NCBI GenBank assembly: GCA_963837955.1
Contig: CAWIPH010000002.1
Location: 2,996,487-3,060,486 of the forward strand
Source of the DNA: an uncultured Verrucomicrobiae bacterium
GTDB lineage: Bacteria; Verrucomicrobiota; Verrucomicrobiia; Chthoniobacterales; JAFAMB01
Direction: 5' to 3'
DNA length: 64,000 bases
Positions within the stretch are counted from its first letter, which is position 1; every line of letters begins with the position of its first letter. A model generated the notes under the pieces. That model saw only the letters and a program-made list of their open reading frames with translations, was not told where the DNA came from and made no database searches. The translations under genes were made by a program, and so were the position numbers. Shown here one piece after another: positions 1-40,338 of the stretch.

Positions 1-3000
1 ACCCAACCTTTCGGGAAACGGTTCGGCGGGTGCGTGATACCGCGTTGGGTGCTCATCAGCATCAGGATGTTCCCTTCGAGATGTTGGTGAAAGAGTTGGC
101 GACTGAACGAAATCCTGGCCGAAACCCGCTCTTCCAGACCATGTTTGTCATGGTCAACGCTCGGCCCAAGACTTACTCCTCACGAGATCTGACGATCGTT
201 CCGATCGAGCTCGAAGAACAGACAGCCAGGTTCGACTTGACGCTGTACTTGTTCAGCAGCGCCGAAGAAATCCGTGGCTCGCTAATCTATAGCGTCGATC
301 TTTTTGACCCCGCGACTATTCGACGGATGGCTAAGCATTTCTGTGCGCTTGTCTCCGGCATTGTCGCAAATCCGGACGCTCGAATATCCGAACTCCCCCT
401 GCTGACCCAAGAGGAACGCGAGCAGATCTTGGTCGAGTGGAACCGAACTCAGACTGAGTTTCCTTCCGGCGCCAGCATCGACCAACTCTTTGAGGAGCAA
501 GCCGGCAAGACACCGAACGCGATTGCCATCGAGTCCGGAGACACCCAATGGAGCTACGAGGATCTGAATCAGCGAGCGAACCAACTTGCTCAGATTCTTC
601 GTCAAACAGGTATTGGCGCTGAAACGTTTGTTGGCCTGTTCCTGGACCGCTCGCCGGAGCTATTCGCAGGAATGTTGGCGATTTTGAAGGTTGGTGGAGC
701 CTACGTGCCAATCGATCCCGGCTATCCGGCAGAGCGGCGTACAGTCATGCTTGAGCAAGTGACAATCGTCATTACGGCGAAACGCTATTCCAGCTCCGTT
801 TCTGCTGGTTCAGCTCGAGTGATCTACATCGAGGATATAGCCGTTACATCTGCCTCGATTTCGGCTCCCCCAATCGAGACTCCTTCGCCTCCGTCGCAGG
901 GCAACAGCATTGCTTACGTTATCTACACCTCCGGTTCGACGGGAAAACCTAAGGGTGTGATGGTTCCTCACCGGGGAGTCGTTCGGCTATTTCGCGGATC
1001 CAACTTCCTCAGCATCCGAGCGTCTGATGTGATCGCTCAAACACTCAACCCCTGCTTTGATGCATCGGTACAGGAGATATGGGGAGCGCTTCTCCACGGT
1101 GCCCGGTTGGTGATCCTGGATAACGAGGTTCTTTTATCTCCGCCGAGATTCAAACAGGCTTTACAAGACTACAACATCACGGCGTGGATGACTACCACAG
1201 CGCTGTTTAACTTGATGGCCAACGAGGTTCCTGAAGCGTTCGCAAAGCTCAATTACGTCGTGTTTGGCGGGGAAGCAGCCGACCCTCAGAGCGTTTCGCG
1301 GGTTCTGCGATGCGGAGCCCCGGCGCATCTCTTCAACGCTTATGGGCCTACCGAGGCATCGGTCGTTACGACATGTTTGGATATCAAACACTTGGAAGAG
1401 GACGCCATTTCCGTTTCCATTGGACGACCGATTTCTAATACTACAATTTATCTGCTCGATCGGTTTAAGGCTCCGGTTCCGATCGGAGTTGTTGGAGAGC
1501 TCTACATCGGGGGTCCCGGAGTGGCACGTGGGTACGTTAAGGCACCTGAACTGACGGCCGAACGTTTTGTTGCAGATCCATTTTCGAACGAGTCCGGCGT
1601 GCGCCTCTATCGTACCGGAGATCTGGCTCGTTGGCTGCCGGATGGAACGATCGAATTCATTGGCCGCACCGATCATCAAGTCAAAATCCGCGGGTTTCGC
1701 ATCGAGCTCGGCGAGATTGAAGCGGTTTTGAATCAGCATCCCGCGGTCAAACACGCAGCCGTGCAGCTCAGGGAACGTAATGGCGAAAAGCGCCTCTTGG
1801 CTTATGCAGCGGGTGACTTATCTCAACTGAACGAAGAATCACTTCGCGATTTTCTCAAACAGAAGCTGCCGGACTATATGGTGCCTTCTGCGATCGTCAC
1901 CCTCGAAAAACTGCCGGTGGATTCAAATGGGAAAATCGACCGGCGCAACTTACCGGAACCTTTGAGAGCGGATCAGGGAAGGGTGGCCGTTGCACCGCGA
2001 GACGCTCTCGAGGCCCACCTGGTCGGAATCTGGGAGAAAATACTCGAATCATCTGCTATTGGTGTTACCGACAATTTCTTCCAACTTGGTGGACATTCGC
2101 TTCTCGCTGTTCGCATTTTTTCCGAGATCGAGAGAACCCTCGCAAGGAAGCTCCCTCTGTCGACGCTGTTTAAGGCTCCAACGGTGGAAGCGCTGGCCGA
2201 TGTCTTGCGCCGACAAGAGCGGGAGAAAGAGTGCTCCGCGCTGGTGGCCATCCAACCGCTCGGTGCGCGGCCGCCTTTTTTCAACGTGCACGACGGCTAC
2301 GGTTCGGCGATCTATTACGGCCTCCTGGCCGGTTGCCTTGGATCCGAACAGCCGTTCTATGGTTTCTTGGCCCGGAACAAAGACGGAGGCGTTCTCCGAC
2401 AGACCTCAATCGAAACAATTGCCAAGTACTACATCGACGAGATACTTCAGGTGCAGCCGGTCGGCCCATATTACCTGGGTGGGTTCTGTCTGGGCGGTGT
2501 GATCGCTTTCGAGATGGCTCAGCAACTCTATGCCGTCGGGGAAGAAGTCGCTTTGTTGGCGTTGTTTGACACCAACAATCCGGCAACGCCGCGACGCCGA
2601 CACACATTGGTGGAGCGGTTGCGTCGCCATGCTGTCCTCACGAAGAACACCTCCCTCCGCCAAAAAATGGGCACGACGGCCAGCCGGGTCAAGCGCCACG
2701 CAAATAAGTGGCGGGAGCGCATCCTCAATCGTGCTTCCAGTGAAAGGCCGGCGCCAAATGAGATTTTCGGACGCGAAATCGAAGCGATCCTCAATCGTGC
2801 GCAACAGGCCTACACGCCTCAGTGCTATCCCGGGAAGCTCACCCTCATCCTACCGGAGAACGACCTCGAAGGATACGAGCTTCGGCCGGATCGAGGCTGG
2901 ACCGAACTCGCGGAGGGTGGGATTGAAATTCACTATATACCCGGCGGCCATGGCTCAATGTTCAAGCAGCCGAGTGTCGGGTATTTAGCCGACGTAGTCC

Positions 3001-3059
3001 AAACATGCCTTAGGGCGGCGTCGGAGCAGAGCATGGTCCCGCAGCGCGCCGCCAGATGA
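1..3059 (+). CDS. Non-ribosomal peptide synthetase, terminal module (C-domain tail, A, T/PCP, TE); 5' end cut by the window edge
   Basis: The frame of ORF 30..3059 stays open to position 1. The first ~125 aa look like the end of a condensation domain. Adenylation core motifs are present: SIAYVIYTSGSTGKPKGV, NAYGPTE, GELYIGGPGVARGY, YRTGDLARW, NGKIDRRNL. The carrier motif is FFQLGGHSLLAV. The C-terminal alpha/beta-hydrolase thioesterase has the elbow GGFCLGG, then LFDTNNP and GGHGSMF. Confidence 0.9.
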   Translation, partial: PTFRETVRRVRDTALGAHQHQDVPFEMLVKELATERNPGRNPLFQTMFVMVNARPKTYSSRDLTIVPIELEEQTARFDLTLYLFSSAEEIRGSLIYSVDLFDPATIRRMAKHFCALVSGIVANPDARISELPLLTQEEREQILVEWNRTQTEFPSGASIDQLFEEQAGKTPNAIAIESGDTQWSYEDLNQRANQLAQILRQTGIGAETFVGLFLDRSPELFAGMLAILKVGGAYVPIDPGYPAERRTVMLEQVTIVITAKRYSSSVSAGSARVIYIEDIAVTSASISAPPIETPSPPSQGNSIAYVIYTSGSTGKPKGVMVPHRGVVRLFRGSNFLSIRASDVIAQTLNPCFDASVQEIWGALLHGARLVILDNEVLLSPPRFKQALQDYNITAWMTTTALFNLMANEVPEAFAKLNYVVFGGEAADPQSVSRVLRCGAPAHLFNAYGPTEASVVTTCLDIKHLEEDAISVSIGRPISNTTIYLLDRFKAPVPIGVVGELYIGGPGVARGYVKAPELTAERFVADPFSNESGVRLYRTGDLARWLPDGTIEFIGRTDHQVKIRGFRIELGEIEAVLNQHPAVKHAAVQLRERNGEKRLLAYAAGDLSQLNEESLRDFLKQKLPDYMVPSAIVTLEKLPVDSNGKIDRRNLPEPLRADQGRVAVAPRDALEAHLVGIWEKILESSAIGVTDNFFQLGGHSLLAVRIFSEIERTLARKLPLSTLFKAPTVEALADVLRRQEREKECSALVAIQPLGARPPFFNVHDGYGSAIYYGLLAGCLGSEQPFYGFLARNKDGGVLRQTSIETIAKYYIDEILQVQPVGPYYLGGFCLGGVIAFEMAQQLYAVGEEVALLALFDTNNPATPRRRHTLVERLRRHAVLTKNTSLRQKMGTTASRVKRHANKWRERILNRASSERPAPNEIFGREIEAILNRAQQAYTPQCYPGKLTLILPENDLEGYELRPDRGWTELAEGGIEIHYIPGGHGSMFKQPSVGYLADVVQTCLRAASEQSMVPQRAAR

Positions 3060-4003
3060 AAGTTACCATTGGCGTTCCAGTTCGAAACTGCCAGGCCTGG
3101 ATTCGAGAATCCATCCAATCTGCTCTGAGCCAGACCTGGCCAGAGAAAGAGATCCTGGTTGTCGACGACGGTTCCACCGACGATACGCCACGGCTCTGTC
3201 AGAATTTTGGCCACCAAATTCGTTATTTCTCCCAAGGGAAATTGGGAGTCAGCGCTGCGCGGAATCGCATTTTGCGCGAAGCAAGAGGGGATTGGATTCA
3301 ATACCTCGACGCGGACGATTACCTCCTGCCAGGAAAACTGGAAGCGCAATTAGGCTCGACAGACAGTCTCACCGAGGTCGACGTGATTTTCGGTTCGTTT
3401 CTGATCGAGACTTTGCAGGATGGCAACGCGGTTATCCGCCGTTCCTACGCTATTAGCAAATCAAGCAATCTACTGGAACTCTGGATGGTTCAAAAACTTC
3501 CCCAGATCGCCGGGTGCCTTTGGAAGAAGACCGCACTTCTACGGATCGGCGGATGGGACGAGTCCCTCCAGACCGGCGAAGACTATGAACTCTATCTCCG
3601 AGTTCTCCAGGCCAACCTGCGGCTTCATATTGTTGAGAATCCCTTGGCGGTGTGGCGCTGGTGGTCTGTCGGAACATTGGGCCGAGAATACCGCAATCAA
3701 ATGTGCCTGGTTTACGTCGATTTAATGAAACGATGTGAGACTTGGTTGAAGTCACAAGGTCGCTGGACCGATACCTTGCAGGATCTGGCCGAACGAAAGC
3801 GTTTTTTTTTCGCTCGGGAGATTGCGAAAACTGATATCGAACTGGCCGCCCACTACTACCAAGAGCAGAAGGCGATAGGTTCGATCGGAATCGACCGCTC
3901 GATTGCTCCTTGGAAGTATGAAATCATGTTGCGGTTCTTAGGATTCAAGCGCGCCGAGCAAATCGCTCGGATGCTGCGTCCCGCCGAAGTGAACCCGACC
4001 TGA
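3056..4003 (+). CDS. Family 2 (GT-A) glycosyltransferase, translationally coupled to the NRPS
   Basis: The ATG overlaps the NRPS TGA (ATGA, 3056-3059). The N-terminus VTIGVPVRNCQAW...VVDDGSTDDT and the DxD-like LDADDY are typical of GT2. It is a paralogue of ORF 17363..18286. Confidence 0.85.
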   Translation: MKVTIGVPVRNCQAWIRESIQSALSQTWPEKEILVVDDGSTDDTPRLCQNFGHQIRYFSQGKLGVSAARNRILREARGDWIQYLDADDYLLPGKLEAQLGSTDSLTEVDVIFGSFLIETLQDGNAVIRRSYAISKSSNLLELWMVQKLPQIAGCLWKKTALLRIGGWDESLQTGEDYELYLRVLQANLRLHIVENPLAVWRWWSVGTLGREYRNQMCLVYVDLMKRCETWLKSQGRWTDTLQDLAERKRFFFAREIAKTDIELAAHYYQEQKAIGSIGIDRSIAPWKYEIMLRFLGFKRAEQIARMLRPAEVNPT

Positions 4004-4138
4004 CTCCTATCAGCTACGCTCCCCCTTCGCGATGGCCGGCAAGAGTCAGCTCGCCGGCAGAAGCCTCAGCGGCCACAAAAATCTTCGCATTAAAGAGAAG
4101 GCCCTGGAAATGCGCTTGCTTAGGATCAAGTTACTCGC

Positions 4139-4459
4139 GTGCGATCGAGTTTCCGGCGCGCCTGGACCGGCTACCGCCGCTTGCGTTTCTTTGCTATCGG
4201 GCTTTTTGCGGCCTTTATGCTGGAGCTGCGTTATCTGCAGTTTCTTCCTGGGCTTGTGTTTGCATTGACTTTTGTGGCCTACTATTTTTCTGCAACGTGC
4301 TTAGCCAACTGGAAGTGTCCGCGGTGTCGCCAGCCCTTTTTCCGTGGTTCTTTCGTTCGCAGCTTTTTTGGCGGCAAATGTTTCCATTGCGACCTTCCAA
4401 AATGGAGTGATACGGAAACGGGTAAAGCGCCGATACCGCGAAAACTCCGGTTGCCCTGA
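4139..4459 (+). CDS. Small membrane protein with a C-terminal CxxC...CxxC zinc-ribbon-like motif (hypothetical)
   Basis: GTG start, two hydrophobic segments, then WKCPRCRQ...GGKCFHCDLP. It competes with the overlapping ORF 4032..4268. No family was recognised. Confidence 0.35.
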   Translation: MRSSFRRAWTGYRRLRFFAIGLFAAFMLELRYLQFLPGLVFALTFVAYYFSATCLANWKCPRCRQPFFRGSFVRSFFGGKCFHCDLPKWSDTETGKAPIPRKLRLP

Positions 4460-4501
4460 TCCGGTACGCTACCGTCTTGCCATGGGCGGGCGAAATCGGC
4501 T

Positions 4502-6565
4502 TCAGGCCGGCAGAGCTGGCGCCCGCCCACCGTAGCCCCGAAACGGGCGGTTTTCTAGTAAGTTGTAATCCGCGTAGAAACGGCGACCACTCAGATGTTT
4601 TGGTACGGCATTGACTACCAAGCCCGAGACGCGAATTTCCCGAAACTTCAGTTCCTCTAGCGCCATGGTTGCATCATTTGGGCGGCTGAGGCCGAGTCGA
4701 ACAACAAATAACGTAGCGTCGGCGTACGCGGCCAGGGCTACGCCGTCGGTCGTCGCGAGTACCGGCGGAGTATCGATTAGAATATAATCAAACTGCGCAT
4801 TAAGCTCTTGGCGTAATTCAGCTAAATCAAAGCTAAGCAAATGCTCAGTGATGTTCTGAATCCGCTGGCCGCATGGCATCAAATAGAGATGCGGCATTCG
4901 AGTCTCGCACAGGGTCTCCTGCAAGCCTTTCTGTCGCGTTAGGAGATCCGAAAGACCGGCCCCGTTTTCGACGCTAAGCAACTGATGGAGCCGGCCTCTC
5001 CGCATGTCGCCATCGATGAGTAGGGTACGCGCATTTGTGGCCGCTAAGGCTATCGCCAAATTTGTTGCCACCAAAGATTTACCTTCCCGCGGAACGGCGC
5101 TGGTCACGGCCACGCACTGCATAGCTAAGAATTCTTGCGGTCGCCGAAGAACGCTGGAGCGCAGATGACGAAACGATTCCGCAATTCCGACGTGCTCGGG
5201 CGTACAATCAAGCACAGTCTTCTGTTTGGTGATCCATGGATCGCGTAAGATCTTACCCACGATGGGGAGATGCAAAGCACGAAGGACTCCCTCAATCGTC
5301 ATGAAGCGCGGTACTAACCGGGAATACAAAGCGATTCCAGCCAGAGCCAGGACAAGCCCAAGAGCTCCAAACTGCACGTAACTTAGAAACCGCGACTTTA
5401 TCACCTCAGTCCCATCCGAGGCGCTCTCCAAAATTGCGATCGGCTCTTGTTCCAGTTGTTTGCCGACATCGATACTCTGAAGCTGACTCACCAGTTTGTT
5501 AGAGGTCTCCCGGCTGCTATCTACCTTCGATTTCAGATTCTGGTATTTGTTCAGATTGTCGTTCAGATCGATTAGGTGAGCCTGTTTCTGTTGAACTTCT
5601 TTTTCCAGGCCTTCCGTTTCGCGATCGATGGCACTGATTTGATCGCTTCGGTGATCTTTCTGTTGTGAACGAAGAACCGTGAGTAGGTTTTTGTCTCCGG
5701 CTATCTTTAGGTCCAGTTGCTTGATCTTCGGATGTTCCGGTTTCAAGTTCTTGAGGAGGCGTTCGCGCTCAGATTCTTGCAACGCCAAGTCTTGTTGGGT
5801 CGTTAGCACCCGATCTTGGGCTCCGTCAACTTGGGTACTTCCGCTGGAAATAGAACCATCCAAGGGAATCGCGGCGGCCGCGGCCGACGCGTCGACCCCA
5901 CTACCGGTGACAGCTACCGACCTCTCGAGTCGCAGATCCGCGATTCGCTTATGCAGTGTGTTCAGGTACGCGGTGGTTGCCGTGACATCTTCGGTTAGAG
6001 AAATGACGCTGAATTGGCGTTGGAATTCGTTCAGGCTTTGCGTTCCCCGATCCAGTTCCTGCTGCACGCTCACGATCTCTTGGGCCGCCGCCGAGGAAGC
6101 AGCCTCCGTGCGTTGGAGGCGCATGTCGCGACGGACGGCAAAGAAAGCTTGCATGCTCGCTTCCAGCAGCGCTTGCGTATAAACGGGATCAGTGCCGGTT
6201 GCGCTCAACACGAAGATGGCCGTTCGCGGTATGAAGCTGACCCGAAGGTCGACCCTGGATTTCGGTGGTATAAGCCCGCGATCAGCTACAATTTTTCGAG
6301 CGCGCACTGCCACCGCATCGCCCTGAATGATGGCCGCCTGCGTTCCCAGAAAGTCCTCTCCGTTCTCCGTGTAAACGGCCCCTGTATCCAAATTGATCTT
6401 CCCAGCAATCACCATTTTCGCCTCGCTGACATACAGTGGCGCTTCGTGCGACCTTAACCATCCTGCGGCTAACAGTCCCCCGAAAATCAAGATGACTGGA
6501 AACCACCATAAGCGCCGAACCTCGGCGTAAAACGTTCCAAAATCGAAGGAATTCATAACTTGCAC
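4502..6565 (-). CDS. Polysaccharide co-polymerase / BY-type tyrosine autokinase (Wzc/EpsG-like chain-length determinant)
   Basis: It has an N-terminal TM segment, a long coiled-coil periplasmic region and a second TM segment. The cytoplasmic P-loop domain shows Walker A SAVPREGKSLVATNLA, A' LLIDGDMRRG and B YILIDTPPV. The C-terminal tail contains tyrosines (FYADYNLL..RGYGG). Confidence 0.85.
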   Translation of the reverse strand: MQVMNSFDFGTFYAEVRRLWWFPVILIFGGLLAAGWLRSHEAPLYVSEAKMVIAGKINLDTGAVYTENGEDFLGTQAAIIQGDAVAVRARKIVADRGLIPPKSRVDLRVSFIPRTAIFVLSATGTDPVYTQALLEASMQAFFAVRRDMRLQRTEAASSAAAQEIVSVQQELDRGTQSLNEFQRQFSVISLTEDVTATTAYLNTLHKRIADLRLERSVAVTGSGVDASAAAAAIPLDGSISSGSTQVDGAQDRVLTTQQDLALQESERERLLKNLKPEHPKIKQLDLKIAGDKNLLTVLRSQQKDHRSDQISAIDRETEGLEKEVQQKQAHLIDLNDNLNKYQNLKSKVDSSRETSNKLVSQLQSIDVGKQLEQEPIAILESASDGTEVIKSRFLSYVQFGALGLVLALAGIALYSRLVPRFMTIEGVLRALHLPIVGKILRDPWITKQKTVLDCTPEHVGIAESFRHLRSSVLRRPQEFLAMQCVAVTSAVPREGKSLVATNLAIALAATNARTLLIDGDMRRGRLHQLLSVENGAGLSDLLTRQKGLQETLCETRMPHLYLMPCGQRIQNITEHLLSFDLAELRQELNAQFDYILIDTPPVLATTDGVALAAYADATLFVVRLGLSRPNDATMALEELKFREIRVSGLVVNAVPKHLSGRRFYADYNLLENRPFRGYGGRAPALPA

Positions 6566-7197
6566 TACCAGTTGAAAAATCTTGCCGGCACCACGATCAC
6601 GTCGCCCGGTTTGAGCGCGACATCTAGGTCGGCTCTTCCTTGGGTCACGATCGCTGCAACATCGATCACCTTGATCTCAGTTTTGGGGGCAGACGCGCGT
6701 ACCAGTTTTACTTTCCGCTTATTCGCGAAATCCGAAAATCCGCCTGACTCCAGAATTGCCTGGGCCAGGGTCAAAGACTCATTCGCTCGCAACTCGAGCG
6801 GCCCAGGTCGAGCGATCTCACCGGTCAAGTAGATCCGTCCGGGTGAACGAACAGTCCGTCTCTCCACGGAAATCATTACCGTCGCCTTCTTGTATAGATT
6901 GCTCTCCAGCGCCCGCTTAATCTGATAGGCCAGGTCACGCGGAGTTCGGTTCATAGCCATCACACTGCCGACGTAAGGGACTTGTACCTGACCAGAATCG
7001 CTAACGGTCAACAAAGTCGCCGGATCCTCATCCTCCAAAATGCGGAACGTGAGTTGATCTCCAATTTGAATAGAGGTCTGATTGTCTAGCTGATCGATCG
7101 AAGTAAGCGGCCCGCTCGTCGTTTGGCCCTCGCCGAGCAGCGGAATTGAGGAAATCAACGTCAGGAGAAATAAAGTTAATGATCGGTTAAAACGCAT
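6565..7197 (-). CDS. Polysaccharide export protein (Wza-like, Poly_export + SLBB)
   Basis: The internal ATG at 7197 gives the signal-peptide-like start MRFNRSLTLFLLTLISSIPLLG. The motif IGDQLTFRILEDED...VQVPYVGSVMAMNRTPRDLAYQIKRAL is typical of Wza-type exporters. The long ORF start at 7344 would overlap the upstream gene by 158 nt. Confidence 0.8.
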   Translation of the reverse strand: MRFNRSLTLFLLTLISSIPLLGEGQTTSGPLTSIDQLDNQTSIQIGDQLTFRILEDEDPATLLTVSDSGQVQVPYVGSVMAMNRTPRDLAYQIKRALESNLYKKATVMISVERRTVRSPGRIYLTGEIARPGPLELRANESLTLAQAILESGGFSDFANKRKVKLVRASAPKTEIKVIDVAAIVTQGRADLDVALKPGDVIVVPARFFNW

Positions 7198-8500: not shown

Positions 8501-8586
8501 GGAACGGCATCTAAACTGTATTCGATCTTATACAGACAGCTCCGCGACTCCTTCGTCCGAACCAACGCTCCAGGTTGACACTTCAC

Positions 8587-10077: not shown

Positions 10078-10492
10078 GAAGAACCATTATTTGAGGAGTC
10101 GGATCTTATCGTGTGCACTTAAGCGAATGCGACGTAATACCGGCGATCGGTGTCTGACTAGCGAGATAGTCAAGAAAAGCTATAATGAGCTCTCCTAGCC
10201 ATAAATTAAACGCGTCTACCCGGAACCGAATGATCCCGGACAGAAAAAGCTAACGAGCTCTCGACCTCGACTAAACCGCGGGGAGTCGGGCCGTATATCC
10301 TGATTCTAAGTTATTTACAAGTCTTTTTTGCGATGCAGTTATGAGAATTTTAGATCCAAGGCGCGAGTTTGAGACCTTTCTTGGACAATTATTCTCTGAA
10401 TTGCGCAATTCTTCCGAGTATCGCCTATTCCGACTACGCGATTTAACTTTCCAGCGTCGCCGCCTTGCCCTTCGGAGTTAGGCAGGAATTTC

Positions 10493-12666: not shown

Positions 12667-12670
12667 GGGG

Positions 12671-15195: not shown

Positions 15196-15203
15196 AAAAC
15201 AGA

Positions 15204-17301: not shown

Positions 17302-17362
17302 CTATCTTTCTACGCACTTTAGAAGTTTCCAGACGAAAACCAACTTATCGCGCAAAAGAAAA

Positions 17363-18286: not shown

Positions 18287-18316
18287 TTTCTGATTCGGTC
18301 CCTCCTGGTTAACATT

Positions 18317-20214: not shown

Positions 20215-20231
20215 ACGATGTGCCGGCTCCT

Positions 20232-23307: not shown

Positions 23308-23327
23308 TTTTCCCGCAGTAATGTTAG

Positions 23328-32100: not shown

Positions 32101-35100
32101 TCGTTGTTGTCTTGGCTCTGTTCGGCCAGAATCTGTTGGGCCAACCGAAGTAGCCCGCTCCGACCGGAAGCGGCCTCTTGTGATTGCACGTCGATCCAGC
32201 GAGCGTTTATCCTGGGGTATTCCCGCGGGATGACCTTGATCGGTCCCATCAGTACTGCCCGTTCCGCGCTCAGGATCTCTTCCCCCCCGACGGAATGGAG
32301 GTCGTTTGAAACGACGGTCAATTCGATGGGTTCGTTGATATCTTGGGCGCCAATTGCCTGCGCTAGAAATACCAGACTATGAAAGCATCTTTCCTGGAAC
32401 GAACCTTCGCCATCCAAGGTGGATCGCGACGAAGTTGGCTCGTAGATGGGCCATAGATAAATGATTCCCCGGGGCGCACCTCGATCTTCCAAACAATGCC
32501 GCAACAGAAGATCAAAATCGGATCGAGATGCCGGATCGACTCGGAAAGCATTTCGATTCAGCACCCCAAATTCGGACCCATACGCTACACTGACCGTGTC
32601 AACCTCTCGCGCTCGCAGTTCACCTGCGAGGCAGTCACCCAAACCAAGCGGATCGCTGAAGATCAGCCACCAACCCGTCGTATCAACTTGCGTCAGGTGC
32701 GATGGAGATTCGACAGCCTTACGCCAGACCGGCTGAAAAAAAACTAACTCTTTATTTTTCGTCTTTTCAACGACCTCAGGAACCGCTTTGGCCAATTGAA
32801 CTTCGGCGGGAGCTTCAATCCAAAATCGTTGTCGCTCGAATGGATAAGTCGGAAGCAGAACTGGGTGACACTTGTCGCCCTGGTGAAACTCCGTCCAGTT
32901 AACATCGGCGCCGACAGCCCAAAGCCGACCTAGTGTGGTGAGAAGCAGCTGCTGGTCATTTACCGATTCACGTGGTCCTCGGACTGACGAGAACACTTTT
33001 CCAAAATCATTTTTCGAAACGTGACGCTTGGTCAGACCGGACAGCACCTGTCCCGGACCAACCTCCAGAAACGCTCCTGCACCTCGCTCGATCACCTGGC
33101 GAATACCGTTCGAGAACTGGACTGTGCTCCGGATCTGTTTAGCCCAATACCCAGGATCAATGGCATGCTCCGGTTTAATCCAATCTCCAGTGAAGTTTGA
33201 AACGAAGGGAATCTGAGGCGGCCTTAGCCGGCAGTGCCCAACAAATTCAACAAATGGTTGGAGAATCGAATCAGCCGAAGCAGAATGAAAAGCGTGCGAA
33301 GTCTGTAACCGTTGGGCACTCTTATCTGCGCGGCGTAAGCGCTGCGCCAGATCATCAATAGCAGTCTCCGGCCCCGAAAATACACATTGATCAGGCGCGT
33401 TTACCGCTGCCAGGGAAACCTCTGCCGGCAGCCACGCTGCAGCTTCCGACTCCGGCAGATTCGCCGCCAACATTCCGCCTGGGGACATGCTCTGCATGAG
33501 TTGCGCTCGGAGCGCCACAATGCTCAGAGCATCTTCCAAGGAGAATACTTGAGCGATGGTGGCTGCCACTAGCTCGCCAATACTGTGCCCAATCATGCAG
33601 TCGGGACGTATACCCCAGGCCGACCAAAGCTTTGCTAGCGCCAGCTCTACTACAAAAAGCGCCGGTTGGGTGAACCTGGTTTGATTGAGAAGCTTCGTTG
33701 CCTCTTCCCGCCCAGATTCGGTGGGATAAAGTAACGTTCGAATATCAATGCCAATATGGGGCCGCAAAAGTTCCGAACAGCGATCGACTTCTCCAGAAAA
33801 GACTCGCTCACCCGCATAAAGATCACTCGTCATGCCGGCGTATTGGGTGCCCTGTCCGGGGAATAAAAAAGCCAGGGAAGAACGCGATGGCGCGGCGCCA
33901 CTCACGACATTTCTTCCATTTTCGTTGCGCAGTGCCTGAACCGCTTCAGCGACCGAGCCGCATACCGCTGCCCAGCGATGAGTAAAAGCCCGTCTCCCTC
34001 GATGACAAGTGAATGCTACGTCGGCTAAATTCACGTCTGGATCATTTTGCAGATGGTCCGCCATTCTTTGCAGTGCTCTAACCAATGCTGCCTCCGTTTT
34101 AGCGGACAGCGTCAGCAACTGCGGAGAGCGTTGCGAGTGTGACGAAGCCGTGGGCGGCGCTTCCTCCAGAATAACGTGCGCATTCGTTCCCCCAATTCCC
34201 AGCGACGTGACTCCAGCTCGCCGTGATCCCTTGAGCGATTTCCATTCGGACAACTGCGCGTTAACGTAGAACGGACTATTTTCGAAATCGATCAACGGAT
34301 TCGGCTTCGTAAAATGAAGACTTGGCGGGATTTGACGGCGCTCCAGTGCCAAGACGGTCTTAATAAAGCCGGCGACTCCGGCGGCAGCATCCAGATGTCC
34401 CACGTTGCTTTTGAGGGAGCCGATGGCACACGTCCTTTTCGCACCGGTAGACTGAAATGCTTTGGTCAGGGCAGTGATTTCGATTGGGTCACCAACAGCG
34501 GTGCCGGTCCCATGGGTCTCCACATATGCAACCGACTCGGGTTCAATACCAGCAACAGCTAGCGCCTGCCGCACCACTTCGGATTGGCCAACGACGCTCG
34601 GCGCGAAAAAGCCTGCCTTGCGAGCCCCGTCGTTGTTGACTGCCGTCCCCAGAATAACGGCATGAATTCGATCGCCGTCTTGAATGGCGTTTTCCAAACG
34701 TCGAAGCACTACGACGCCTAGTCCGCTACTGAATACTGTGCCGCTTGAGTCGGCGGCAAACGGACGGCAACGCCCGTCCCGCGAAAGAATCTCGCCAGGG
34801 CGATAAAGGTAGCCGCAGCCATGAGGTATTTCGATAGTTACGCCGCCCGCTAAAGCCATATCGCACTCCTGACCCAACAAACTCTGACACGCGAGATGAA
34901 TGGCCACGAGCGAGGTGGAGCAGGCCGTCTGAACCGACATGCTCGGTCCGTTTAGATCGAGCTGATATGAGACTCGCGTCGCCAAGACATCTTTATCGTT
35001 TCCGGTTTGCTTAATCAGAAAGAGTCCCGATGTTTCCATCACCTTCCGGTTCGGCAATAGATTGTGAATCAGATAGCTGCTCATGCCCGAACCTGCGTAT

Positions 35101-35465
35101 ACGCCGATTGATCCGGGGAATTGACTCGAATCCCAGCCAGCGTTCTCTAATGCTTCCCAGGAACACTCGAGAAACAGGCGATGCTGCGGGTCCATTATTG
35201 CTGCATCTCTCGGACTGAACCCAAAAAAATCGGCATCGAATTGATCTATTCCTTCCAGTACAGCAGCTCGTTTAACGTAATGCTCGTCCTGAGTAATCGA
35301 TTGATCGACTCCGGCTGCCTCTAGATCGGCGTCTGTTAGATCCTTAATCGATTCGCGACCCTCACGAAGGTTTTCCCAAAATTGATCAAGGCTCTGCGCT
35401 CCTGGAAAACGTCCTGCCATCCCGACCACTGCGATGGCAGAGCTGTTGATCTCGGGCTGATTCAT
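29133..35465 (-). CDS. Type I polyketide synthase, single module KS-AT-(~275 aa unassigned)-KR-DH-CP-TE
   Basis: Domain positions are approximate. KS spans aa ~9-435 (VQTACSTSLVA with C182, ETHGTGT, NVGHLD). AT spans aa ~531-830 (GHSIGE, HAFH). KR spans aa ~1155-1345 (TGGLGGIG, LLDD, VDYAAANAF). DH spans aa ~1385-1660 (HRFHGAEALLPG, YFGPRW, HPALLD). The carrier spans aa ~1745-1820 (FFDLGGHSLIAV, Ser codon 30120-30122). TE spans aa ~1828-2095 (GYSYGG, ILDSV, GDH). Confidence 0.95.
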   Translation of the reverse strand: MNQPEINSSAIAVVGMAGRFPGAQSLDQFWENLREGRESIKDLTDADLEAAGVDQSITQDEHYVKRAAVLEGIDQFDADFFGFSPRDAAIMDPQHRLFLECSWEALENAGWDSSQFPGSIGVYAGSGMSSYLIHNLLPNRKVMETSGLFLIKQTGNDKDVLATRVSYQLDLNGPSMSVQTACSTSLVAIHLACQSLLGQECDMALAGGVTIEIPHGCGYLYRPGEILSRDGRCRPFAADSSGTVFSSGLGVVVLRRLENAIQDGDRIHAVILGTAVNNDGARKAGFFAPSVVGQSEVVRQALAVAGIEPESVAYVETHGTGTAVGDPIEITALTKAFQSTGAKRTCAIGSLKSNVGHLDAAAGVAGFIKTVLALERRQIPPSLHFTKPNPLIDFENSPFYVNAQLSEWKSLKGSRRAGVTSLGIGGTNAHVILEEAPPTASSHSQRSPQLLTLSAKTEAALVRALQRMADHLQNDPDVNLADVAFTCHRGRRAFTHRWAAVCGSVAEAVQALRNENGRNVVSGAAPSRSSLAFLFPGQGTQYAGMTSDLYAGERVFSGEVDRCSELLRPHIGIDIRTLLYPTESGREEATKLLNQTRFTQPALFVVELALAKLWSAWGIRPDCMIGHSIGELVAATIAQVFSLEDALSIVALRAQLMQSMSPGGMLAANLPESEAAAWLPAEVSLAAVNAPDQCVFSGPETAIDDLAQRLRRADKSAQRLQTSHAFHSASADSILQPFVEFVGHCRLRPPQIPFVSNFTGDWIKPEHAIDPGYWAKQIRSTVQFSNGIRQVIERGAGAFLEVGPGQVLSGLTKRHVSKNDFGKVFSSVRGPRESVNDQQLLLTTLGRLWAVGADVNWTEFHQGDKCHPVLLPTYPFERQRFWIEAPAEVQLAKAVPEVVEKTKNKELVFFQPVWRKAVESPSHLTQVDTTGWWLIFSDPLGLGDCLAGELRAREVDTVSVAYGSEFGVLNRNAFRVDPASRSDFDLLLRHCLEDRGAPRGIIYLWPIYEPTSSRSTLDGEGSFQERCFHSLVFLAQAIGAQDINEPIELTVVSNDLHSVGGEEILSAERAVLMGPIKVIPREYPRINARWIDVQSQEAASGRSGLLRLAQQILAEQSQDNNDTIIAYRQGERWVSAIESVQLAPRSDLQRIKRDGVYLITGGLGGIGYAVSEFLARKKGARIALVDRTGLPARADWESLLLTAAEPLQERIRKVKQLEKMGAEVIALRGDVTLLDDMHQAVSSILNRWGTIDGVFHCAGTIHDEVIQLKERDRAESVLAPKVKGTLNLNAALSGIDLDFFLLFSSISSLIAPVGQVDYAAANAFEDAFSQMMHSLGRKNVMAINWGRWRDVGLAATNKVQPGSDSTGQRPPNWLAGRCVRANDQEVCYEQELSFERHWVLNEHRFHGAEALLPGTGYIEIARVLASKHFRAGGFELRNLSFAAPLMVDFGKTRAIQSRIFKTGDEWRFSVSAARRQEGKSPTTECVSATLHFPEETSPERFPLDETLRRCSRSTLTFSSDVQNTKQAKFLYFGPRWRSLRRIHFGERELISFSELPEEFTSDLESVGLHPALLDVATGSAMFAISGYEKTEDLYVPILYQRLRVYGALPRHCYAHITWTTDNNIQDEIVTFDLTLLDERGAVLATANEFVLRRVTDIAMFYHEGTETDFDRQRPIPVSFESKTDEEETAITTDQGIVALERLLEAGLRPQLIVAPASLQLERAVAPGQRKSTPRHNPEPLVGGDEIAPGDDIERTLVSWWSDLLGVEQVGARDDFFDLGGHSLIAVRLFTKIKKGFGLDLGVGTLFEARTIESLSRLIRGGHAVASQCIVPIHSAGSKSPLFFLHAVNGEILLYRHIVRHLEPTQPVFGVRAAQIDKNPEAVSSMEELAALYVEEILRVQPAGPYNLAGYSYGGFLAFEVARQLKLTGKEISLLAILDSVTSELNIRWSFREKMAQRATRIRYRFSILKSRGWKDWVSYLRWRAHLAKEKILEKRNGSRPEYIEWVEPEHQHVATVLRKLSSEWEPKPFAGAATLLRARDRSKTIEFDPQNGWGKLISQLAICEFDGDHVSFIREPGAEDVARKLTGLLSCQTGAQPPIQEHIVFRKAGP

Positions 35466-35603: not shown

Positions 35604-37571
35604 CTATTCGGATCTTCCGGGCTTTGATTTGCCGCGTCGCAGCAACGCTTCGCGCCGGGATTGACCGCGGAGAGTTCCATCTGCGCCGGAGGTACCGCCC
35701 TCGATCGTACCATTCAAATGACGAGCTAACAATTCGACCGTCGAATGCTCAAACAGTTCAGGCAGGGTGACGCTAATTCGCAACTGTTCCCTAAGTCTCG
35801 TAACGACCTCGACAAACGACATTGAGTTCGCTCCCAGATCGATGAAATTCTTTTGATGATCAACCGTTTGTGCGTTTAACGCCTCGCACCAGATGGAAGC
35901 AACAACTTCTTCCAACTTCGAGGCATTTTGGAGATGGTGCGCCGACGCAACGGTTGGGGTCCGTACAGTTTTCAAGGCGCGACGATCGACCTTGCCGTTT
36001 GGCGTAAACGGCATTGAGTCGATGTAGAAGAACGCAGAAGGAATCATGTGCGATGGTATCATCGTCTCCAGAAACGCATGAAGCTCACTCGGAGGAACCA
36101 CCGTCTGGTCTGCGCCAGTGATATAGGCGAGAAGCGTCTGCTCGCCGGACCGTTCAGACTTTGCAATCACGGCGCAATTCCCCACTCGCGGATGCTTCTG
36201 AAGATGCGACTCGATCTCCTCCAGTTCGATCCGGAACCCGTGGATCTTCACCTGATTGTCAACTCGACCAAGAAATTCTAACTCACCGTTTGGCCGATAC
36301 CGAACAACATCACCTGTCCGGTAGAATCTCGCACCTGGCCGTGGATCGAACGGGTTAACCAGAAATTTTTCCGCGGTTAGCTCCGGCCGATTCAGGTAGC
36401 CACGGACGACTCCGGCACCACCAATAAATAACTCTCCTTGCGCCCCGATCGGCACCCTTCGAAGATCCTCATCGAGGACATACATTTCTGTATTGGCTAT
36501 CGGTTTACCGATCGGAACTGTCTGCTCACTACTTTGCAGGCGGTAAATTGCCGACCATACGGTGGTCTCGGTCGGTCCGTATGCATTTAGCACAACGCCA
36601 GATACCGAAGCAGTAAGCATCACCGCTAAAGAACTCGGAAACGGTTCTCCTCCAACTACCAGCCTTTTGATCGAGCGAAGGGCATCTCGGAGATTTCCGC
36701 TTTCGGATAACCACCGGATAAGCGACGGCGTGCACTGGAAGTGCGTCACTTGATATCGCTCGATTAGACGATGAATCGTGTATTCTCCATTTAGCGCGAG
36801 CTTGTCGACATCACTTTGCAGGACGATGGTAAATCCCCGCGCCAAAGTCCAAAACAACTCCAGCACCGAGATATCAAACGAAATGCTGGTGACAGCTAAC
36901 CAGACGCCCGGTCCGCCGCCCACAAACTCGTCCATGGCCACAAAGAAGTTGCTAACGTTCCGATGCTCAATCATGACTCCCTTTGGAACGCCGCTCGACC
37001 CCGAGGTATAGATGACATACGCGAGGTTGCTGCCTTGCGCCCTACTCCGCTGACTCGGCTCCCGATTCAAATCGAGGTCTGGCAAATCTTGGTCTGTAAA
37101 GAGCATTTGAACCAAAGCATTCGAGAAACGATCGGCCAAGGATTTCTGGGTGATGAGGATCGGCGTTCCGGAGTCGCTCAACATGAGTTGAAGCCGTTCA
37201 TCCGGGAACTCCGGATCGAGCGGAAGGTAGGCCGCGCCTGTCTTCAGGATCGCTAAAAGCGCCACGATCAGGTCTACCGACCGGGGAACACAAGCTGCAA
37301 CAATTACCTCCGCTCGCGCACCGAGCTTACTAAGCACTTCAGCTAAGGCTTCGGCACGTGCATTTAGTTCTCGATAGGTAAGGCTCTTTCCTTTGAAAAT
37401 TACGGCGGTATGCTCCGGGCTCCGCCGCACTTGTTCCGTAAAGTAATCCTGGATGCATTTTTCCTCTGGGTATTCAGTGCCCGTCGCGTTCCATGCGGCG
37501 AAGATTTCATCCGCTTCACTCTCGCTGATGATCTCGCGAGTGGCGGTGTACGGTAATGCGTTTTCCCTCAT
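35604..37571 (-). CDS. Stand-alone NRPS-type adenylation + carrier (A-T) didomain protein, probable loading module
   Basis: Adenylation motifs are LTYRELNARAEALA, LAYVIYTSGSSGVPKGV, NAYGPTE, GELFIGGAGVVRGY, YRTGDVVRY and NGKVDRRAL. A C-terminal carrier follows, with FIDLGANSMSFV. There is no C or TE domain. Confidence 0.9.
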   Translation of the reverse strand: MRENALPYTATREIISESEADEIFAAWNATGTEYPEEKCIQDYFTEQVRRSPEHTAVIFKGKSLTYRELNARAEALAEVLSKLGARAEVIVAACVPRSVDLIVALLAILKTGAAYLPLDPEFPDERLQLMLSDSGTPILITQKSLADRFSNALVQMLFTDQDLPDLDLNREPSQRSRAQGSNLAYVIYTSGSSGVPKGVMIEHRNVSNFFVAMDEFVGGGPGVWLAVTSISFDISVLELFWTLARGFTIVLQSDVDKLALNGEYTIHRLIERYQVTHFQCTPSLIRWLSESGNLRDALRSIKRLVVGGEPFPSSLAVMLTASVSGVVLNAYGPTETTVWSAIYRLQSSEQTVPIGKPIANTEMYVLDEDLRRVPIGAQGELFIGGAGVVRGYLNRPELTAEKFLVNPFDPRPGARFYRTGDVVRYRPNGELEFLGRVDNQVKIHGFRIELEEIESHLQKHPRVGNCAVIAKSERSGEQTLLAYITGADQTVVPPSELHAFLETMIPSHMIPSAFFYIDSMPFTPNGKVDRRALKTVRTPTVASAHHLQNASKLEEVVASIWCEALNAQTVDHQKNFIDLGANSMSFVEVVTRLREQLRISVTLPELFEHSTVELLARHLNGTIEGGTSGADGTLRGQSRREALLRRGKSKPGRSE

Positions 37572-37710: not shown

Positions 37711-39519
37711 CTAGGACCTCTCAATGGCAACGCACTCAAGATGATCATCTACATTCCGCACCTTCCGGCGACGCTGAATCAGCCGATTCTCCAGGAACAA
37801 ATATTCGATTCCAGTCCCAAGGAATGTTTCTACTGCCTCCTTCGGGGAATTTACTATCGGTTGCCCTTTAACATTGAAACTGGTGTTTAATACCATCTCG
37901 CAACCGGTAATATTCCCCACCTCATGCAACAGACGATGAAACTGAGGATTATCTTTTTCAGAGACAGTTTGCACTCGGGCGCTTCCATCAACATGGGTGA
38001 TGGCGGGTAACTCCTTCCGGTATTCTTCTCGCACCAGCACCGTAGCAATCATGTAAGGCAGTTCTGTTCCCGGCGACACATCAAACCAAAGGTGCACTTG
38101 CTCCAAAGAAACGGCCGGCGCGAATGGTCTGAAAGCCTCCCTTTTTTTGACCATTGCATTAATCCGGTCCCGCATTGCCGGGTTTCCAGGATCCGCCAGA
38201 ATGCTACGGTTACCGAGAGCTCGAGGGCCAAATTCCATTCGGCCACGATACCACGCGATAACGCACCCCTGCGCTATCAGCCGAGCAGCTTCCTGACACG
38301 TCTTTTCCAGGCTCTCGAACTCGACCACCACAATCTCGTCAGCAAACTGACTTATATCCGCATCAATCTGCTTGGCCGAATATGCTGGACCATAGAACGG
38401 CACGGGCATGCGGATGTTCCGGACCGAATCGTTAGCCCATGAACCATACAGAGCAGCGCCGACCGCGGCGCCGTCGTCACCCGCAGCCGGCTGGACATAG
38501 ATTTCATCAAAGGTCCCAGAACGCATTAAACTCCCGTTAGCAGTACAATTCAGCGCGACTCCTCCGGCCAAGGCGAGCCGGCGTAAGCCGGTCTCGGATC
38601 CGAAGTGACCACAGATATGAAGAATGACTTTGTTCAGACACTCCTGCAAAGCAGCGGCAACATCCCGATGGGTCTGGGTGATATTCTCTTCGGGCGACCT
38701 GGCTGGTAACAGTCGCTCGGTCAGGAAACGGCGGGTCGCTAAGTAATTCTCGCGCTCTTCCCGTGTCTGGTTCAGACGGAGCGGCGGTATTCGTACCGTT
38801 CCATCTGCGTACAGCTCGACTGCCTCTTCAAAAAAACTGCGAAACCGGCTCGGATCGCCGTATGGGGCAAGCCCCATGATTTTGTACTCGTCCGCATTAA
38901 AGTCGAAACCAAGGTGAAGCGTAACGAGCGAATAGAATATGCCAATCGAATCGTTGGCAGATATTTTCTTGATTTCATCAAGTCCGTTTTTATCAGCGTG
39001 ATAGACCGTAACGCTTTGAGTCTCGCCCATCGCATCGATAACGATCACCAAGCATTCGTCCCATCCGGAAGTAAGAAAAGCGCTAGAAGCGTGCGCAAGA
39101 TGATGCGGGATCTGTTCTACCTTGCTCTCCGGCAGTCCAGGGAAAGCATTTTGGAGGTTTTGCAAAAGCGCTTCTCGGGAAAAAACAGTCCGATATAGTT
39201 CCGCCGAAACAGGGTCCAGATTGTACACCTCTTGGTACGGGGAATAATCGAAAGCGTGAACGACCAAATCGATGTCTTCCAGATTAAGGCCCGATTCGGC
39301 CAAGCAATAGCGAATTGCCCCCGCTGGAAGATCGCCTGTGTGTTTTTTTAGATTGAAGCGTTCTTCGGCGGCCGCAGCGACCAAACGACCATCAGTCACC
39401 AGCGCTGCCGCCGAGTCGTGCCCCTGAGAAATGCGGAGTTCTCGGATATCAGCGCTCGGCCAATGGGACGACTTAAACTTTACTGCGTTCGCTAATCCGC
39501 TAACCCCAAGGATTCGCAC
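37711..39519 (-). CDS. Carbamoyltransferase (NodU/CmcH family)
   Basis: It has a GTG start with GGAGG a few nt upstream. The N-terminus reads MRILGVSG...GHDSAAALV..G.LVAAAAEERFNLKKH. The C-terminal domain reads HVDGSARVQTV...LNTSFNVKGQPIVNSPKEAVETF. Confidence 0.9.
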   Translation of the reverse strand: MRILGVSGLANAVKFKSSHWPSADIRELRISQGHDSAAALVTDGRLVAAAAEERFNLKKHTGDLPAGAIRYCLAESGLNLEDIDLVVHAFDYSPYQEVYNLDPVSAELYRTVFSREALLQNLQNAFPGLPESKVEQIPHHLAHASSAFLTSGWDECLVIVIDAMGETQSVTVYHADKNGLDEIKKISANDSIGIFYSLVTLHLGFDFNADEYKIMGLAPYGDPSRFRSFFEEAVELYADGTVRIPPLRLNQTREERENYLATRRFLTERLLPARSPEENITQTHRDVAAALQECLNKVILHICGHFGSETGLRRLALAGGVALNCTANGSLMRSGTFDEIYVQPAAGDDGAAVGAALYGSWANDSVRNIRMPVPFYGPAYSAKQIDADISQFADEIVVVEFESLEKTCQEAARLIAQGCVIAWYRGRMEFGPRALGNRSILADPGNPAMRDRINAMVKKREAFRPFAPAVSLEQVHLWFDVSPGTELPYMIATVLVREEYRKELPAITHVDGSARVQTVSEKDNPQFHRLLHEVGNITGCEMVLNTSFNVKGQPIVNSPKEAVETFLGTGIEYLFLENRLIQRRRKVRNVDDHLECVAIERS

Positions 39520-39654
39520 GGTCCTCCAGTAGCAGAATAAGATTGGTGTTGACTACATTAAAGACAGGCATGCCTAAGGAGGAAAATACTTCTGTTACGG
39601 TTATTATGTTTTTTATGCGCTCCATAGATCCGGCCCGGCTGACCTGAGACGACG

Positions 39655-40338
39655 TCATTTGTTTAGACACTCGGCCGCCTCACTTGAGACCAGTCGTACC
39701 GGCAGTGTAAGGCGCGGCAACGCAATCGCCGAAACAAACCCGGGTATCGCATCGAGGAAACTGACCGCCAGTTCGCCTGCATCCAGCTGGTTGAGCGGTT
39801 GCGTTAGTCCTTCCCCAGTCAATTTTAGAAATGCCTCTTTAGCCACCCAGATCCGGAGAAGTGCTAAACGGCGACTCGGAAAAGGTAACGCTGAAACTCT
39901 TCGCCATTCTGATTGCGAGCAAACGGTCCGCGCGAATTCATCTTCATCGAGGGCACGCGCTTCCGGTTCGATATCAACCCCGACCGGATCGACACAGGTA
40001 ACCGCGATCAGGGATTTTCCGTCCGAGTGAGACACGTTGAAATGCAGGCCCGCCTCCGCCAAGAAAGGTTTCCCCCGTTTTTGGTATTCAAACTTCAGCC
40101 GCTCTGGGGCACGGTTCAGGTAAGCGCCCAGAATCCTCTTTAAAATGGAACGACACACTACGAATCGCTCGCGATCGATTTCTCTTCGGAACCGGTGCGC
40201 CCGCTCCCGTTCAGTCGATTCCAGAATATCCCAATCATCTTCTTCAACTGGCCTATCCAAAGATATGGTCCACACGTCAACGCTCGATTCGGGAAGACAA
40301 AGAGCGGGCAAAATCATCTTTGGATAATGACAAATCAT
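39655..40338 (-). CDS. Sfp-type 4'-phosphopantetheinyl transferase
   Basis: Motifs FNVSHSDG, PVGVDIE and WVAKEAFLKLTGEG are present. At 227 aa it is typical for the Sfp/HetI group. Confidence 0.85.
   Translation of the reverse strand: MICHYPKMILPALCLPESSVDVWTISLDRPVEEDDWDILESTERERAHRFRREIDRERFVVCRSILKRILGAYLNRAPERLKFEYQKRGKPFLAEAGLHFNVSHSDGKSLIAVTCVDPVGVDIEPEARALDEDEFARTVCSQSEWRRVSALPFPSRRLALLRIWVAKEAFLKLTGEGLTQPLNQLDAGELAVSFLDAIPGFVSAIALPRLTLPVRLVSSEAAECLNK

Follow-up and report, generated by a model that had tools for sequence, protein, structure and literature searches.

Genes for assembly-line enzymes stand together with glycosyltransferase (GT) genes in the mycobacterial glycopeptidolipid and glycolipid loci, which combine non-ribosomal peptide synthetases (NRPSs), polyketide synthases (PKSs), GTs and an acetyltransferase, and in the heterocyst glycolipid loci; both kinds of loci specify envelope glycoconjugates and have a dedicated phosphopantetheinyl transferase (PPTase). 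In these systems the lipid chains are long, the PKSs are multi-modular or iterative, and export proceeds via MmpL or DevBCA. The XrtA systems, for their part, count a carrier protein and an AMP-forming acyl ligase among their components (the TIGR03098 neighbourhood). A PKS/NRPS cluster that comprises a PKS, a glycosyl transferase, an NRPS and a PPTase is conserved in roseobacters (Martens et al., 2007), and its product is given as unidentified where the cluster is treated in PMC5014874; a literature search for that product, or for PKS genes within O-antigen or exopolysaccharide (EPS) clusters, yielded nothing beyond this source. Here we describe a locus of an uncultured Verrucomicrobiae bacterium in which an NRPS gene and a PKS cassette stand at the two ends of a set of genes for polysaccharide assembly and export. 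It lies in a stretch of 64,000 nucleotides, hereafter the window (assembly GCA_963837955.1, contig CAWIPH010000002.1, positions 2,996,487 to 3,060,486). We read it as a mosaic cell-envelope locus of four modules, each of which recombines on its own in relatives, the product of the PKS being most likely joined to a sugar, and we give this reading a probability of roughly 0.6. The modules would be an NRPS gene with the family 2 GT gene GT2a, the polysaccharide locus, the pair formed by GT2d and the acetyltransferase gene AcT2, which would be part of the polysaccharide module by origin, and a cassette of PPTase, carbamoyltransferase (CarbT), A-T and PKS genes.

Genes were assigned from an open reading frame (ORF) listing and from Pfam and NCBIfam profile scans, the Pfam scan covering ORFs of at least 150 aa within 1-45 kb, and the homologous loci and contigs used for comparison are labelled L008 to L175. 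All gene classes reported in a first-pass annotation of the window were recovered in this way at their positions, the recognisable GTs of the locus numbering eleven, as were all of its gene overlaps, which can be read directly off the sequence (ATGA at 3056-3059, TGA/ATG at 28592-28595, and 10 nt at 27690-27699). The genes form a plus-strand NRPS-GT2a pair, a long minus-strand operon running from 24656 to 4502, a plus-strand pair (25437-27088) of an acetyltransferase gene, AcT, and the family 4 GT gene GT4f, and a minus-strand string running from 40338 to 27142. This last string reads PPTase, CarbT, A-T, PKS, PPTase fragment, GT2d and AcT2, and is convergent with the AcT-GT4f pair. The GC content is flat at about 0.53. 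A metagenome contig from JGI (L081), with proteins 99% identical to those of the window, repeats the order PKS, PPTase fragment, GT2d, AcT2, GT4f, AcT, GT-D, and a Logan contig repeats the NRPS (1334 aa, C-A-T-TE) overlapping GT2a, with another large gene before it. Since both junctions are reproduced in two independent assemblies, they are not misassemblies and the region is correctly assembled; the earlier claim that assembly-line genes run on contiguously into glycan genes holds. Scans for promoters and terminators across the junctions returned fewer matches than shuffled sequence and are uninformative on transcription units. Homologues of GT2d and GT2a carry Verrucomicrobiota, Chthoniobacterales-type (Chthoniobacteraceae) and Methylacidiphilales names, and the glycerol kinase encoded in the window falls into a cluster, at 90% identity or more, with a protein of a Verrucomicrobiota metagenome-assembled genome.

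The PKS cassette occupies the minus strand at the right end of the locus. It encodes an intact PPTase of the Sfp/HetI type (39655-40338), CarbT, which belongs to the NodU/CmcH family (37711-39519), both assigned by Pfam and NCBIfam, a stand-alone A-T loading protein recognised with its specificity code (35604-37571), and a type I PKS of 2110 aa with the single module KS-AT-(psiKR)KR-DH-T-TE, assigned by Pfam, by motifs and by PDB matches for KR and DH (29133-35465). Searches for orthologues of the PKS among GTDB representative genomes and JGI metagenome contigs gave nothing above about 51% identity. Orthologues of the cassette were found through a search with the carbamoyltransferase, in L173 and L174, which represent another organism sampled twice and are present in JGI data only; CarbT is 90%, the A-T protein 73% and the PKS 77% identical to those of the window, and the DNA is 74-81% identical. 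Upstream of the L173 cassette, and divergent from it, are two GT2 genes, GT2b (48%), GT4d (57%), the gene for a Wzy-like protein (56%) and an orthologue of a 341-aa protein of the window, and downstream, convergent with it, are a GT-A-like gene of 309 aa and GT4f (75%). The PKS is thus convergent with GT4f in both organisms, and the degree of conservation of GT4f matches that of the cassette; the conserved neighbour that the two Verrucomicrobiota species have in common is this gene. The adjoining PPTase, the PPTase fragment and the GT2d-AcT2 pair are all absent from L173, and no NRPS gene lies within its 10-kb flanks. The candidate explanation that L173 is a second, paralogous copy of the locus within the window genome was rejected, as its proteins occur in JGI sources only and the window genome is in NCBI and ENA.

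In L173 the stop codon of CarbT overlaps the start of the A-T gene, which ties CarbT to the cassette. A CarbT-PPTase pair (CarbT 75%) is also found beside an NRPS gene in L175. The family as a whole is very abundant, with at least 8000 matches and identities of 67-76%, and the named sources among the matches listed are all Acidobacteriota (Bryobacteraceae, Terriglobales). The 90% identity of CarbT in L173, set against 73-77% for the A-T protein and the PKS, suggests either strong constraint or horizontal spread of this gene.

Beyond these orthologues, nine Rhodobacterales loci show the conserved order GT2, unknown gene, PKS (37-39%), GT2, F-A(MOx)-T and PPTase. They are the roseobacter PKS/NRPS cluster introduced above, and of the systems described so far this cluster comes nearest to the PKS part of the window. 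Their PKSs are collinear with that of the window over its full length, in single tblastn HSPs of about 2160 aa (37-38%) that cover residues 4-2101, and the two systems share the single-module KS-AT-KR-DH-T-TE PKS and an Sfp-type PPTase. In both, A and T domains also stand in a protein apart from the PKS, and GT2 genes adjoin the PKS directly, resemblances that may be only partial. The roseobacter NRPS differs in that it has an N-terminal formyltransferase and a luciferase-like monooxygenase within the A domain, whereas the A-T protein of the window is without both and is 37-48% identical to the A and T parts. The gene order is also different, no carbamoyltransferase gene is present, and the roseobacter cluster does not lie within a Wza/Wzc/Wzm/Wzt locus, although its variant L097 adds wzc and two GT4 genes. 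Nor are the roseobacter GT2s orthologous to GT2d, similarity between them being undetectable, and the orthologues of GT2d sit in PKS-free loci. A further relative, L098, has a co-directional series of GT4, polyprenyl-phosphate sugar-phosphate transferase (PGT), Wzc, C-A(MOx)-T, PKS, sugar epimerase and sugar C-methyltransferase genes, followed after other genes by GT2. In the NRPS proteins that accompany such distant homologues of the PKS, a luciferase-like monooxygenase interrupts the A domain (L098, 5948-10372; L008, 17426-22015).

The association of this type of PKS with GT genes is seen in about four independent lineages, namely the window species with L173, the Rhodobacterales, L098 and L035. 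In two species the cassette has glycan genes around it and GT4f at its side, and in other phyla GT2 genes accompany the same PKS architecture. Accordingly the PKS product would most likely be joined to a sugar, a link that is plausible but unproven. Such a product could be a small glycoside or glycolipid, or else a group other than a sugar that substitutes the exported polysaccharide or caps the end of its chain.

The junction between the PKS and the glycan genes of the window was examined for signs of recombination. GT2d (27690-28595, minus strand) overlaps AcT2, a hexapeptide acetyltransferase gene (27142-27699, minus strand), both having been assigned by Pfam and NCBIfam. From the PKS stop codon to the start of GT2d there are 537 nt, in which the only ORF that overlaps GT2d is the 5' third of a second PPTase gene (28592-28972, minus strand). 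This fragment corresponds to residues 1-92, is 50% identical to the intact PPTase and has no catalytic ACPS domain; its homology ends about 45 nt before the ATG of GT2d, and the remainder of the broken gene is absent from the other frames at the junction. At only 50% protein identity, a recent duplication of the intact PPTase gene was ruled out as its source. The fragment is present in L081 (98%) and absent from L173. Because this ORF is truncated, the TGA/ATG overlap at 28592-28595 is simply its first in-frame stop codon and not a designed coupling.

Homologues of GT2d are numerous at 50-70% identity, and their neighbours indicate where the gene comes from. In its closest relatives, from other species (L087-L089; GT2d 70%), a co-directional wzc (53-54%) lies directly upstream of GT2d; in L087 and L088 AcT2 (73-74%) comes next, overlapping GT2d as it does in the window, whereas in L089 the contig breaks off at GT2d. 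The GT2d-AcT2 pair is kept in L086-L088, and in L082-L085 GT2d (59-60%) is found inside a PKS-free syntenic glycan operon. By this synteny, GT2d-AcT2 belongs to the glycan locus in relatives. A rearrangement would have moved the pair from behind wzc to behind the PKS, breaking a second PPTase gene at the breakpoint, and on the simplest reading the overlap at the GT2d junction is thus a recombination scar. Alignment of the region upstream of GT2d with L087 and L088, intended to place the breakpoint, revealed no non-coding homology at 70% protein identity, and a tblastn search of all locus proteins against the whole window found no other gene fragments. Recombination had been offered in the first-pass annotation as an alternative to a functional fusion; that alternative turns out to be largely right, and the PPTase scar on which it was based is real.

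The polysaccharide locus proper is dominated by the long minus-strand operon, which begins with the gene for a GT-D-fold-like protein (23328-24656) and continues with wzm (permease, 22436-23460), wzt (ABC ATPase, 21149-22423), a gene for a possibly GT-A-like protein of 306 aa, GT4e, a carbohydrate esterase family 4 (CE4) deacetylase gene (18317-19165), GT2c, GT2b, GT4d, a wzy-like gene (13756-15195), GT4c, GT4b and GT4a (10493-13978 for the last three), the gene for the initiating PGT (8587-10077), that for an outer membrane protein (OMP)-like protein without family match (7187-8500), wza (export protein, 6565-7344) and wzc (tyrosine autokinase/co-polymerase, 4502-6565). The block from GT4a to the 306-aa gene spans 10493-21152, GT4d, GT2b and GT2c lying between the wzy-like and CE4 genes, and GT4e and the 306-aa gene between those for CE4 and Wzt. 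Most assignments come from Pfam and NCBIfam; the PGT passes TIGR03025 (342.9 bits vs a cut-off of 295.55), and the Wzy-like match is weak (E = 0.003; 27.7 bits to an XrtY-associated Wzy-like model). On the plus strand are AcT, of the WcaF family (25437-25979; 227 vs a cut-off of 192 bits), and GT4f (25979-27088). A Wzx flippase was not recognised, in that no scanned ORF of the window matched MOP or Polysacc_synt. Wzt is intact, and an A8 run (22841-22848) divides Wzm between two frames; A9 or A6 would restore the frame there and give a permease of the 279-aa type seen in L082. The split may reflect an error in sequencing the homopolymer, a true loss of function or a site prone to slippage, and L081 ends before it.

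Relatives without a PKS have a locus of the same kind. In L082-L085 the syntenic order is GT4f, AcT, Wzm, Wzt, Asn synthase, GT2c, GT2d, two unknowns, GT2b, GT4d, Wzy, GT4c, GT4b, OMP-like and Wza, the OMP-like gene being assigned by position since similarity to that of the window was not detected, and neither PKS nor NRPS genes occur within the 10-kb flanks. The trio GT2b-GT4d-Wzy also appears in L173. The glycan module, with its PGT, about nine GTs, Wzy-like protein, CE4 deacetylase, acetyltransferases, Wzm/Wzt, Wza/Wzc and OMP-like protein, is on this comparison built without a PKS in relatives. In L082 and L085 the Wzt orthologues carry the Wzt_C cap-binding domain, which makes a terminal non-sugar cap one concrete possible role for the PKS product.

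Among described systems, the glycan part resembles EPS loci of the PEP-CTERM type. It shares with PEP-CTERM/XrtA loci a PGT that passes TIGR03025 and a PEP-CTERM protein encoded nearby, and XrtA models are the best NCBIfam matches of Wzc and Wza. Wzc and Wza nevertheless remain below the XrtA cut-offs (TIGR03018, 133.5 vs 230.65; TIGR03027, 88.7 vs 180), as do both A domains, and the scanned ORFs of the window gave no family match to an exosortase. In place of the simple ligase and acyl carrier protein of XrtA systems, the window encodes an NRPS and a complete type I PKS.

A parallel with the genes for Nod factors had also been drawn, according to which a chitin-oligomer backbone would be deacetylated, N-acylated, carbamoylated, acetylated and exported by a NodIJ-like transporter. 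The families concerned are indeed shared, as both systems have a CE4 enzyme, a NodU/CmcH carbamoyltransferase, a hexapeptide acetyltransferase and an ABC-2 exporter, but this resemblance of CE4 to NodB, CarbT to NodU and Wzt to NodI is weak and generic. The scores of all four proteins, the acetyltransferase included, against the Nod equivalog models are far below the cut-offs (33.3/240 bits for CE4 vs NodB, 173.7/1000 for CarbT vs NodU, 91.3/521 for Wzt vs NodI), and the four better fit generic polysaccharide families. No Pfam-scanned ORF matched the NodA family, and none of GT2a-d matched NodC in NCBIfam; these GT2s are of about 300 aa and of the non-processive type, with best matches to EpsD, TuaG or MftF-like proteins. 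Initiation, moreover, would be of the undecaprenyl-phosphate type through the PGT, unlike in the Nod factor genes, and a set of PGT, Wzy-like, Wza and Wzc genes typically serves the assembly of lipid-linked polysaccharides. These tests effectively refute a lipo-chitooligosaccharide product, which we regard as extremely improbable.

At the left end of the locus, the termination module of an NRPS (3-3059, plus strand; the end of C, then A-T-TE, by Pfam/NCBIfam) is cut by the window start, and its stop codon overlaps the start of GT2a (3056-4003, plus strand) in the ATGA motif. In the Logan contig the gene is complete (1334 aa, as above) and the large gene before it is listed as a second NRPS gene. 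Orthologues of the NRPS that are 55-58% identical were found in L090, L092 and L175, and the closest non-self homologues of GT2a (53-58%) again lie directly behind an orthologous NRPS gene. L090 has a PIN gene, then C-A-T (918 aa), C-A-T-TE (1354 aa) and a GT2 with the identical 4-nt overlap, and the same NRPS/GT2 overlap is present in L091 (orthologues of both are 58% identical); L092 has the NRPS, two paralogues of GT2a, an Acyl_transf_3 protein and an Aas-like acyl-activating enzyme. Neither Wzc nor other export genes stand beside NRPS-GT2a in the L090-L092 contigs, of which only L091 and L092 provide downstream sequence, the L090 contig stopping about 0.6 kb past its GT2. In the window, GT2a, which is 44% identical to GT2c, and wzc are arranged tail to tail across a gap of 500 nt, such that NRPS-GT2a is convergent with wzc and not co-transcribed with it. 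The gap contains an ORF of 106 aa (4139-4459, plus strand) with a hydrophobic segment followed by a zinc-ribbon-like CPRC...CFHC motif, which may be a real small gene.

Conservation of NRPS-GT2a without adjoining glycan export genes marks it as a self-contained two-part biosynthetic gene cluster (BGC), and in these comparisons it is a separate, stand-alone cassette that merely abuts wzc. It would consist of a dimodular NRPS (C-A-T, then C-A-T-TE) translationally coupled to its own glycosyltransferase, GT2a. The specificity code of module 1 is DVWFISLVDK in L090 and L175, presumably a Ser-like code, and that of the window module is DAQTVGAVVK. As the first NRPS gene opens with a C domain, the peptide would be an N-acylated dipeptide, and the product of NRPS-GT2a is most likely a small glycosylated dipeptide, with N-acylation suggested by that N-terminal C domain. 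The assertion that the locus is not made of neighbouring clusters can therefore not be maintained, NRPS-GT2a being self-contained and GT2d-AcT2 being a part of the glycan locus that reached the PKS by rearrangement. Likewise, of the two translational junctions, that between NRPS and GT2 is kept in relatives (L090, L091), whereas that between PKS and GT2d is a scar unique to the window species.

These results bear on the proposal that NRPS, PKS and glycan genes form one integrated glyco-lipo-peptide system, with a peptide or polyketide that primes or anchors the polysaccharide. As this proposal would have it, the modules follow directly on one another, with short gaps and without a conspicuous terminator-like signal, and the PKS cassette lies within glycan genes in two species. 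A further argument in its favor comes from L175 (JGI 3300063339, 1-12528), where the last module of an NRPS 56% identical to that of the window, with a near-identical specificity code, adjoins PPTase (40%) and CarbT (75%) genes together with those for an FAD monooxygenase and an O-methyltransferase; its NRPS and PPTase-CarbT have the same convergent topology as that which brackets the whole 36-kb region in the window. Against a single system, NRPS-GT2a is kept as a unit in L090-L092 without glycan export genes, the glycan loci of relatives have neither NRPS nor PKS, the L173 cassette has no NRPS in its 10-kb flanks, the PKS-GT2d junction is a scar found in the window species alone, and NRPS-GT2a is convergent with wzc. 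We consider the integrated system improbable. Of the glycoconjugate originally envisaged, a link between PKS product and sugar stays plausible in light of L173 and of the GT2 genes found across phyla, and a single product of NRPS, PKS and glycan genes is unsupported.

What the cassette makes, and how its product meets a sugar, we infer; gene content, junctions, synteny and the scar were read from the DNA itself. In the PKS, the KS has the motifs TACS, HGTGT and NVGH, with Cys180, His318 and His354 intact, the AT is of the malonyl type (GHSIG, HAFH) and the KR of the B type (LDD, YAAAN). The DH motif, HRFHGAEALLP, is one residue longer than HxxxGxxxxP, and the KR precedes the DH, the reverse of the usual cis-AT order. 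The carrier domain (GGHSL) is PCP/NRPS-like, the TE has the motif GYSYG, and the T-TE region is 31% identical to that of the NRPS. The specificity code of the A-T protein, DILQVGAVWK (DILQIGAI in the L173 orthologue), resembles the glycine code; this and the other A-domain codes were read against a fragment of GrsA and are provisional. The A-T protein would then load glycine, and the PKS would add one malonyl unit, reduce it with its B-type KR and dehydrate it to a thioester of the 4-aminobut-2-enoyl type; a module that iterates would give a longer amino-polyene. The TE would release or transfer the product, and the carbamoyltransferase would tailor either the product or the sugar. It is possible, if tentative, that a short amino-polyketide acyl group derived from glycine and malonate, and possibly carbamoylated, is attached to the exported polysaccharide, for instance as a non-reducing-end cap read by Wzt_C or as a side-chain substituent. 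The mycobacterial and heterocyst loci share with the window an assembly line, GTs, an acetyltransferase and a PPTase (that of the window having a HetI-like best match); they show no sequence-level orthology to it, and differ from its one-module PKS, glycine-like starter and Wza/Wzc/Wzm/Wzt export.

Past the PPTase, a protein of 341 aa without family match (40525-41550, minus strand) is followed by a PEP-CTERM-tagged protein (41724-42470, plus strand; PF07589, 21.2 bits vs a cut-off of 20.7), 1.4 kb from the PPTase, and by a protein of 411 aa, also without family match (42471-43706, plus strand). The 341-aa and 411-aa proteins are paralogues, 33% identical, with the PEP-CTERM-tagged protein between them, and the orthologue of the former (52%) borders the glycan block of L173. 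At 47266-48543, 7 kb from the PPTase, there is a gene for an IS-type DDE transposase (DUF772 and DDE_Tnp_1); three proteins of the source contig fall into its 90% cluster, which indicates a multi-copy element in the genome. A glycerol utilisation set (50806-55975; SorC-type regulator, GlpF aquaporin, GlpK, GlpD) has no relation to the locus.

Several points count against the mosaic with a sugar-joined PKS product. The GxSxG motif of the PKS TE is a normal one, as would suit an enzyme that sets a small molecule free by hydrolysis, and no enzyme that would move an acyl group onto a sugar was identified in the locus. Since relatives have a syntenic glycan locus without a PKS, the glycan backbone can be made in the absence of this enzyme, and CarbT is found at 69% identity in Acidobacteria beside GH130, DUF218 and UDP-glucose dehydrogenase genes, with no PKS nearby. 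The comparison with L173 covers 21.7 kb of its contig, and the codes behind the proposed starter, read against a GrsA fragment, are provisional. L175 hints, in addition, at a former single BGC comprising what are now the two ends of the window, which the four-module picture leaves unexplained. Finally, in a set of 160 loci with PKS homologues, GT2 or GT4 ORFs were found in the flanks of 11 of the 18 full-length single-module PKS matches and of none of the 142 others. This speaks for the link to sugar, but the count is inflated by shared ancestry and is not phylogenetically independent, as nine of those 11 represent a single orthologous cluster of the Rhodobacterales, members of which also went into the GT2 profile.

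Some of these points would be expected if an NRPS-GT2 cluster, an EPS locus and a PKS-CarbT cluster were simply juxtaposed in a recombination-prone island, in which case the PKS product would never meet a sugar. The scar at the PKS/GT2d junction, the multi-copy transposase in the vicinity, a module order that differs in every relative, a TE suggestive of free-acid release and the 142 PKS homologues without GT neighbours are all in keeping with this explanation. It is less easily reconciled with L173, in which the cassette lies again between GT genes and next to the same GT4f despite another overall arrangement, or with the GT2-flanked PKSs of the same architecture in the Rhodobacterales, L097, L098 and L035. 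Pure juxtaposition is thus rather unlikely, and we favor the mosaic of recombining modules in which the cassette would serve a sugar-linked product.

The arrangement of the locus calls for caution in one respect, in that a stop/start overlap between a biosynthetic gene and a glycan gene is not evidence of designed coupling, since one of the two such overlaps here is a by-product of rearrangement. If the PKS cassette feeds a sugar-linked product, there would be a testable function for clusters of one-module PKS, A-T, PPTase and GT genes, which have been product-less in roseobacters since 2007. Should the short amino-polyketide acyl group indeed decorate the polysaccharide, the window locus, L098-type loci and the roseobacter PKS/NRPS cluster would represent one uncharacterised class of polyketide-decorated glycans, and substituents made by assembly lines would join the known ways in which bacteria diversify their surface polysaccharides.

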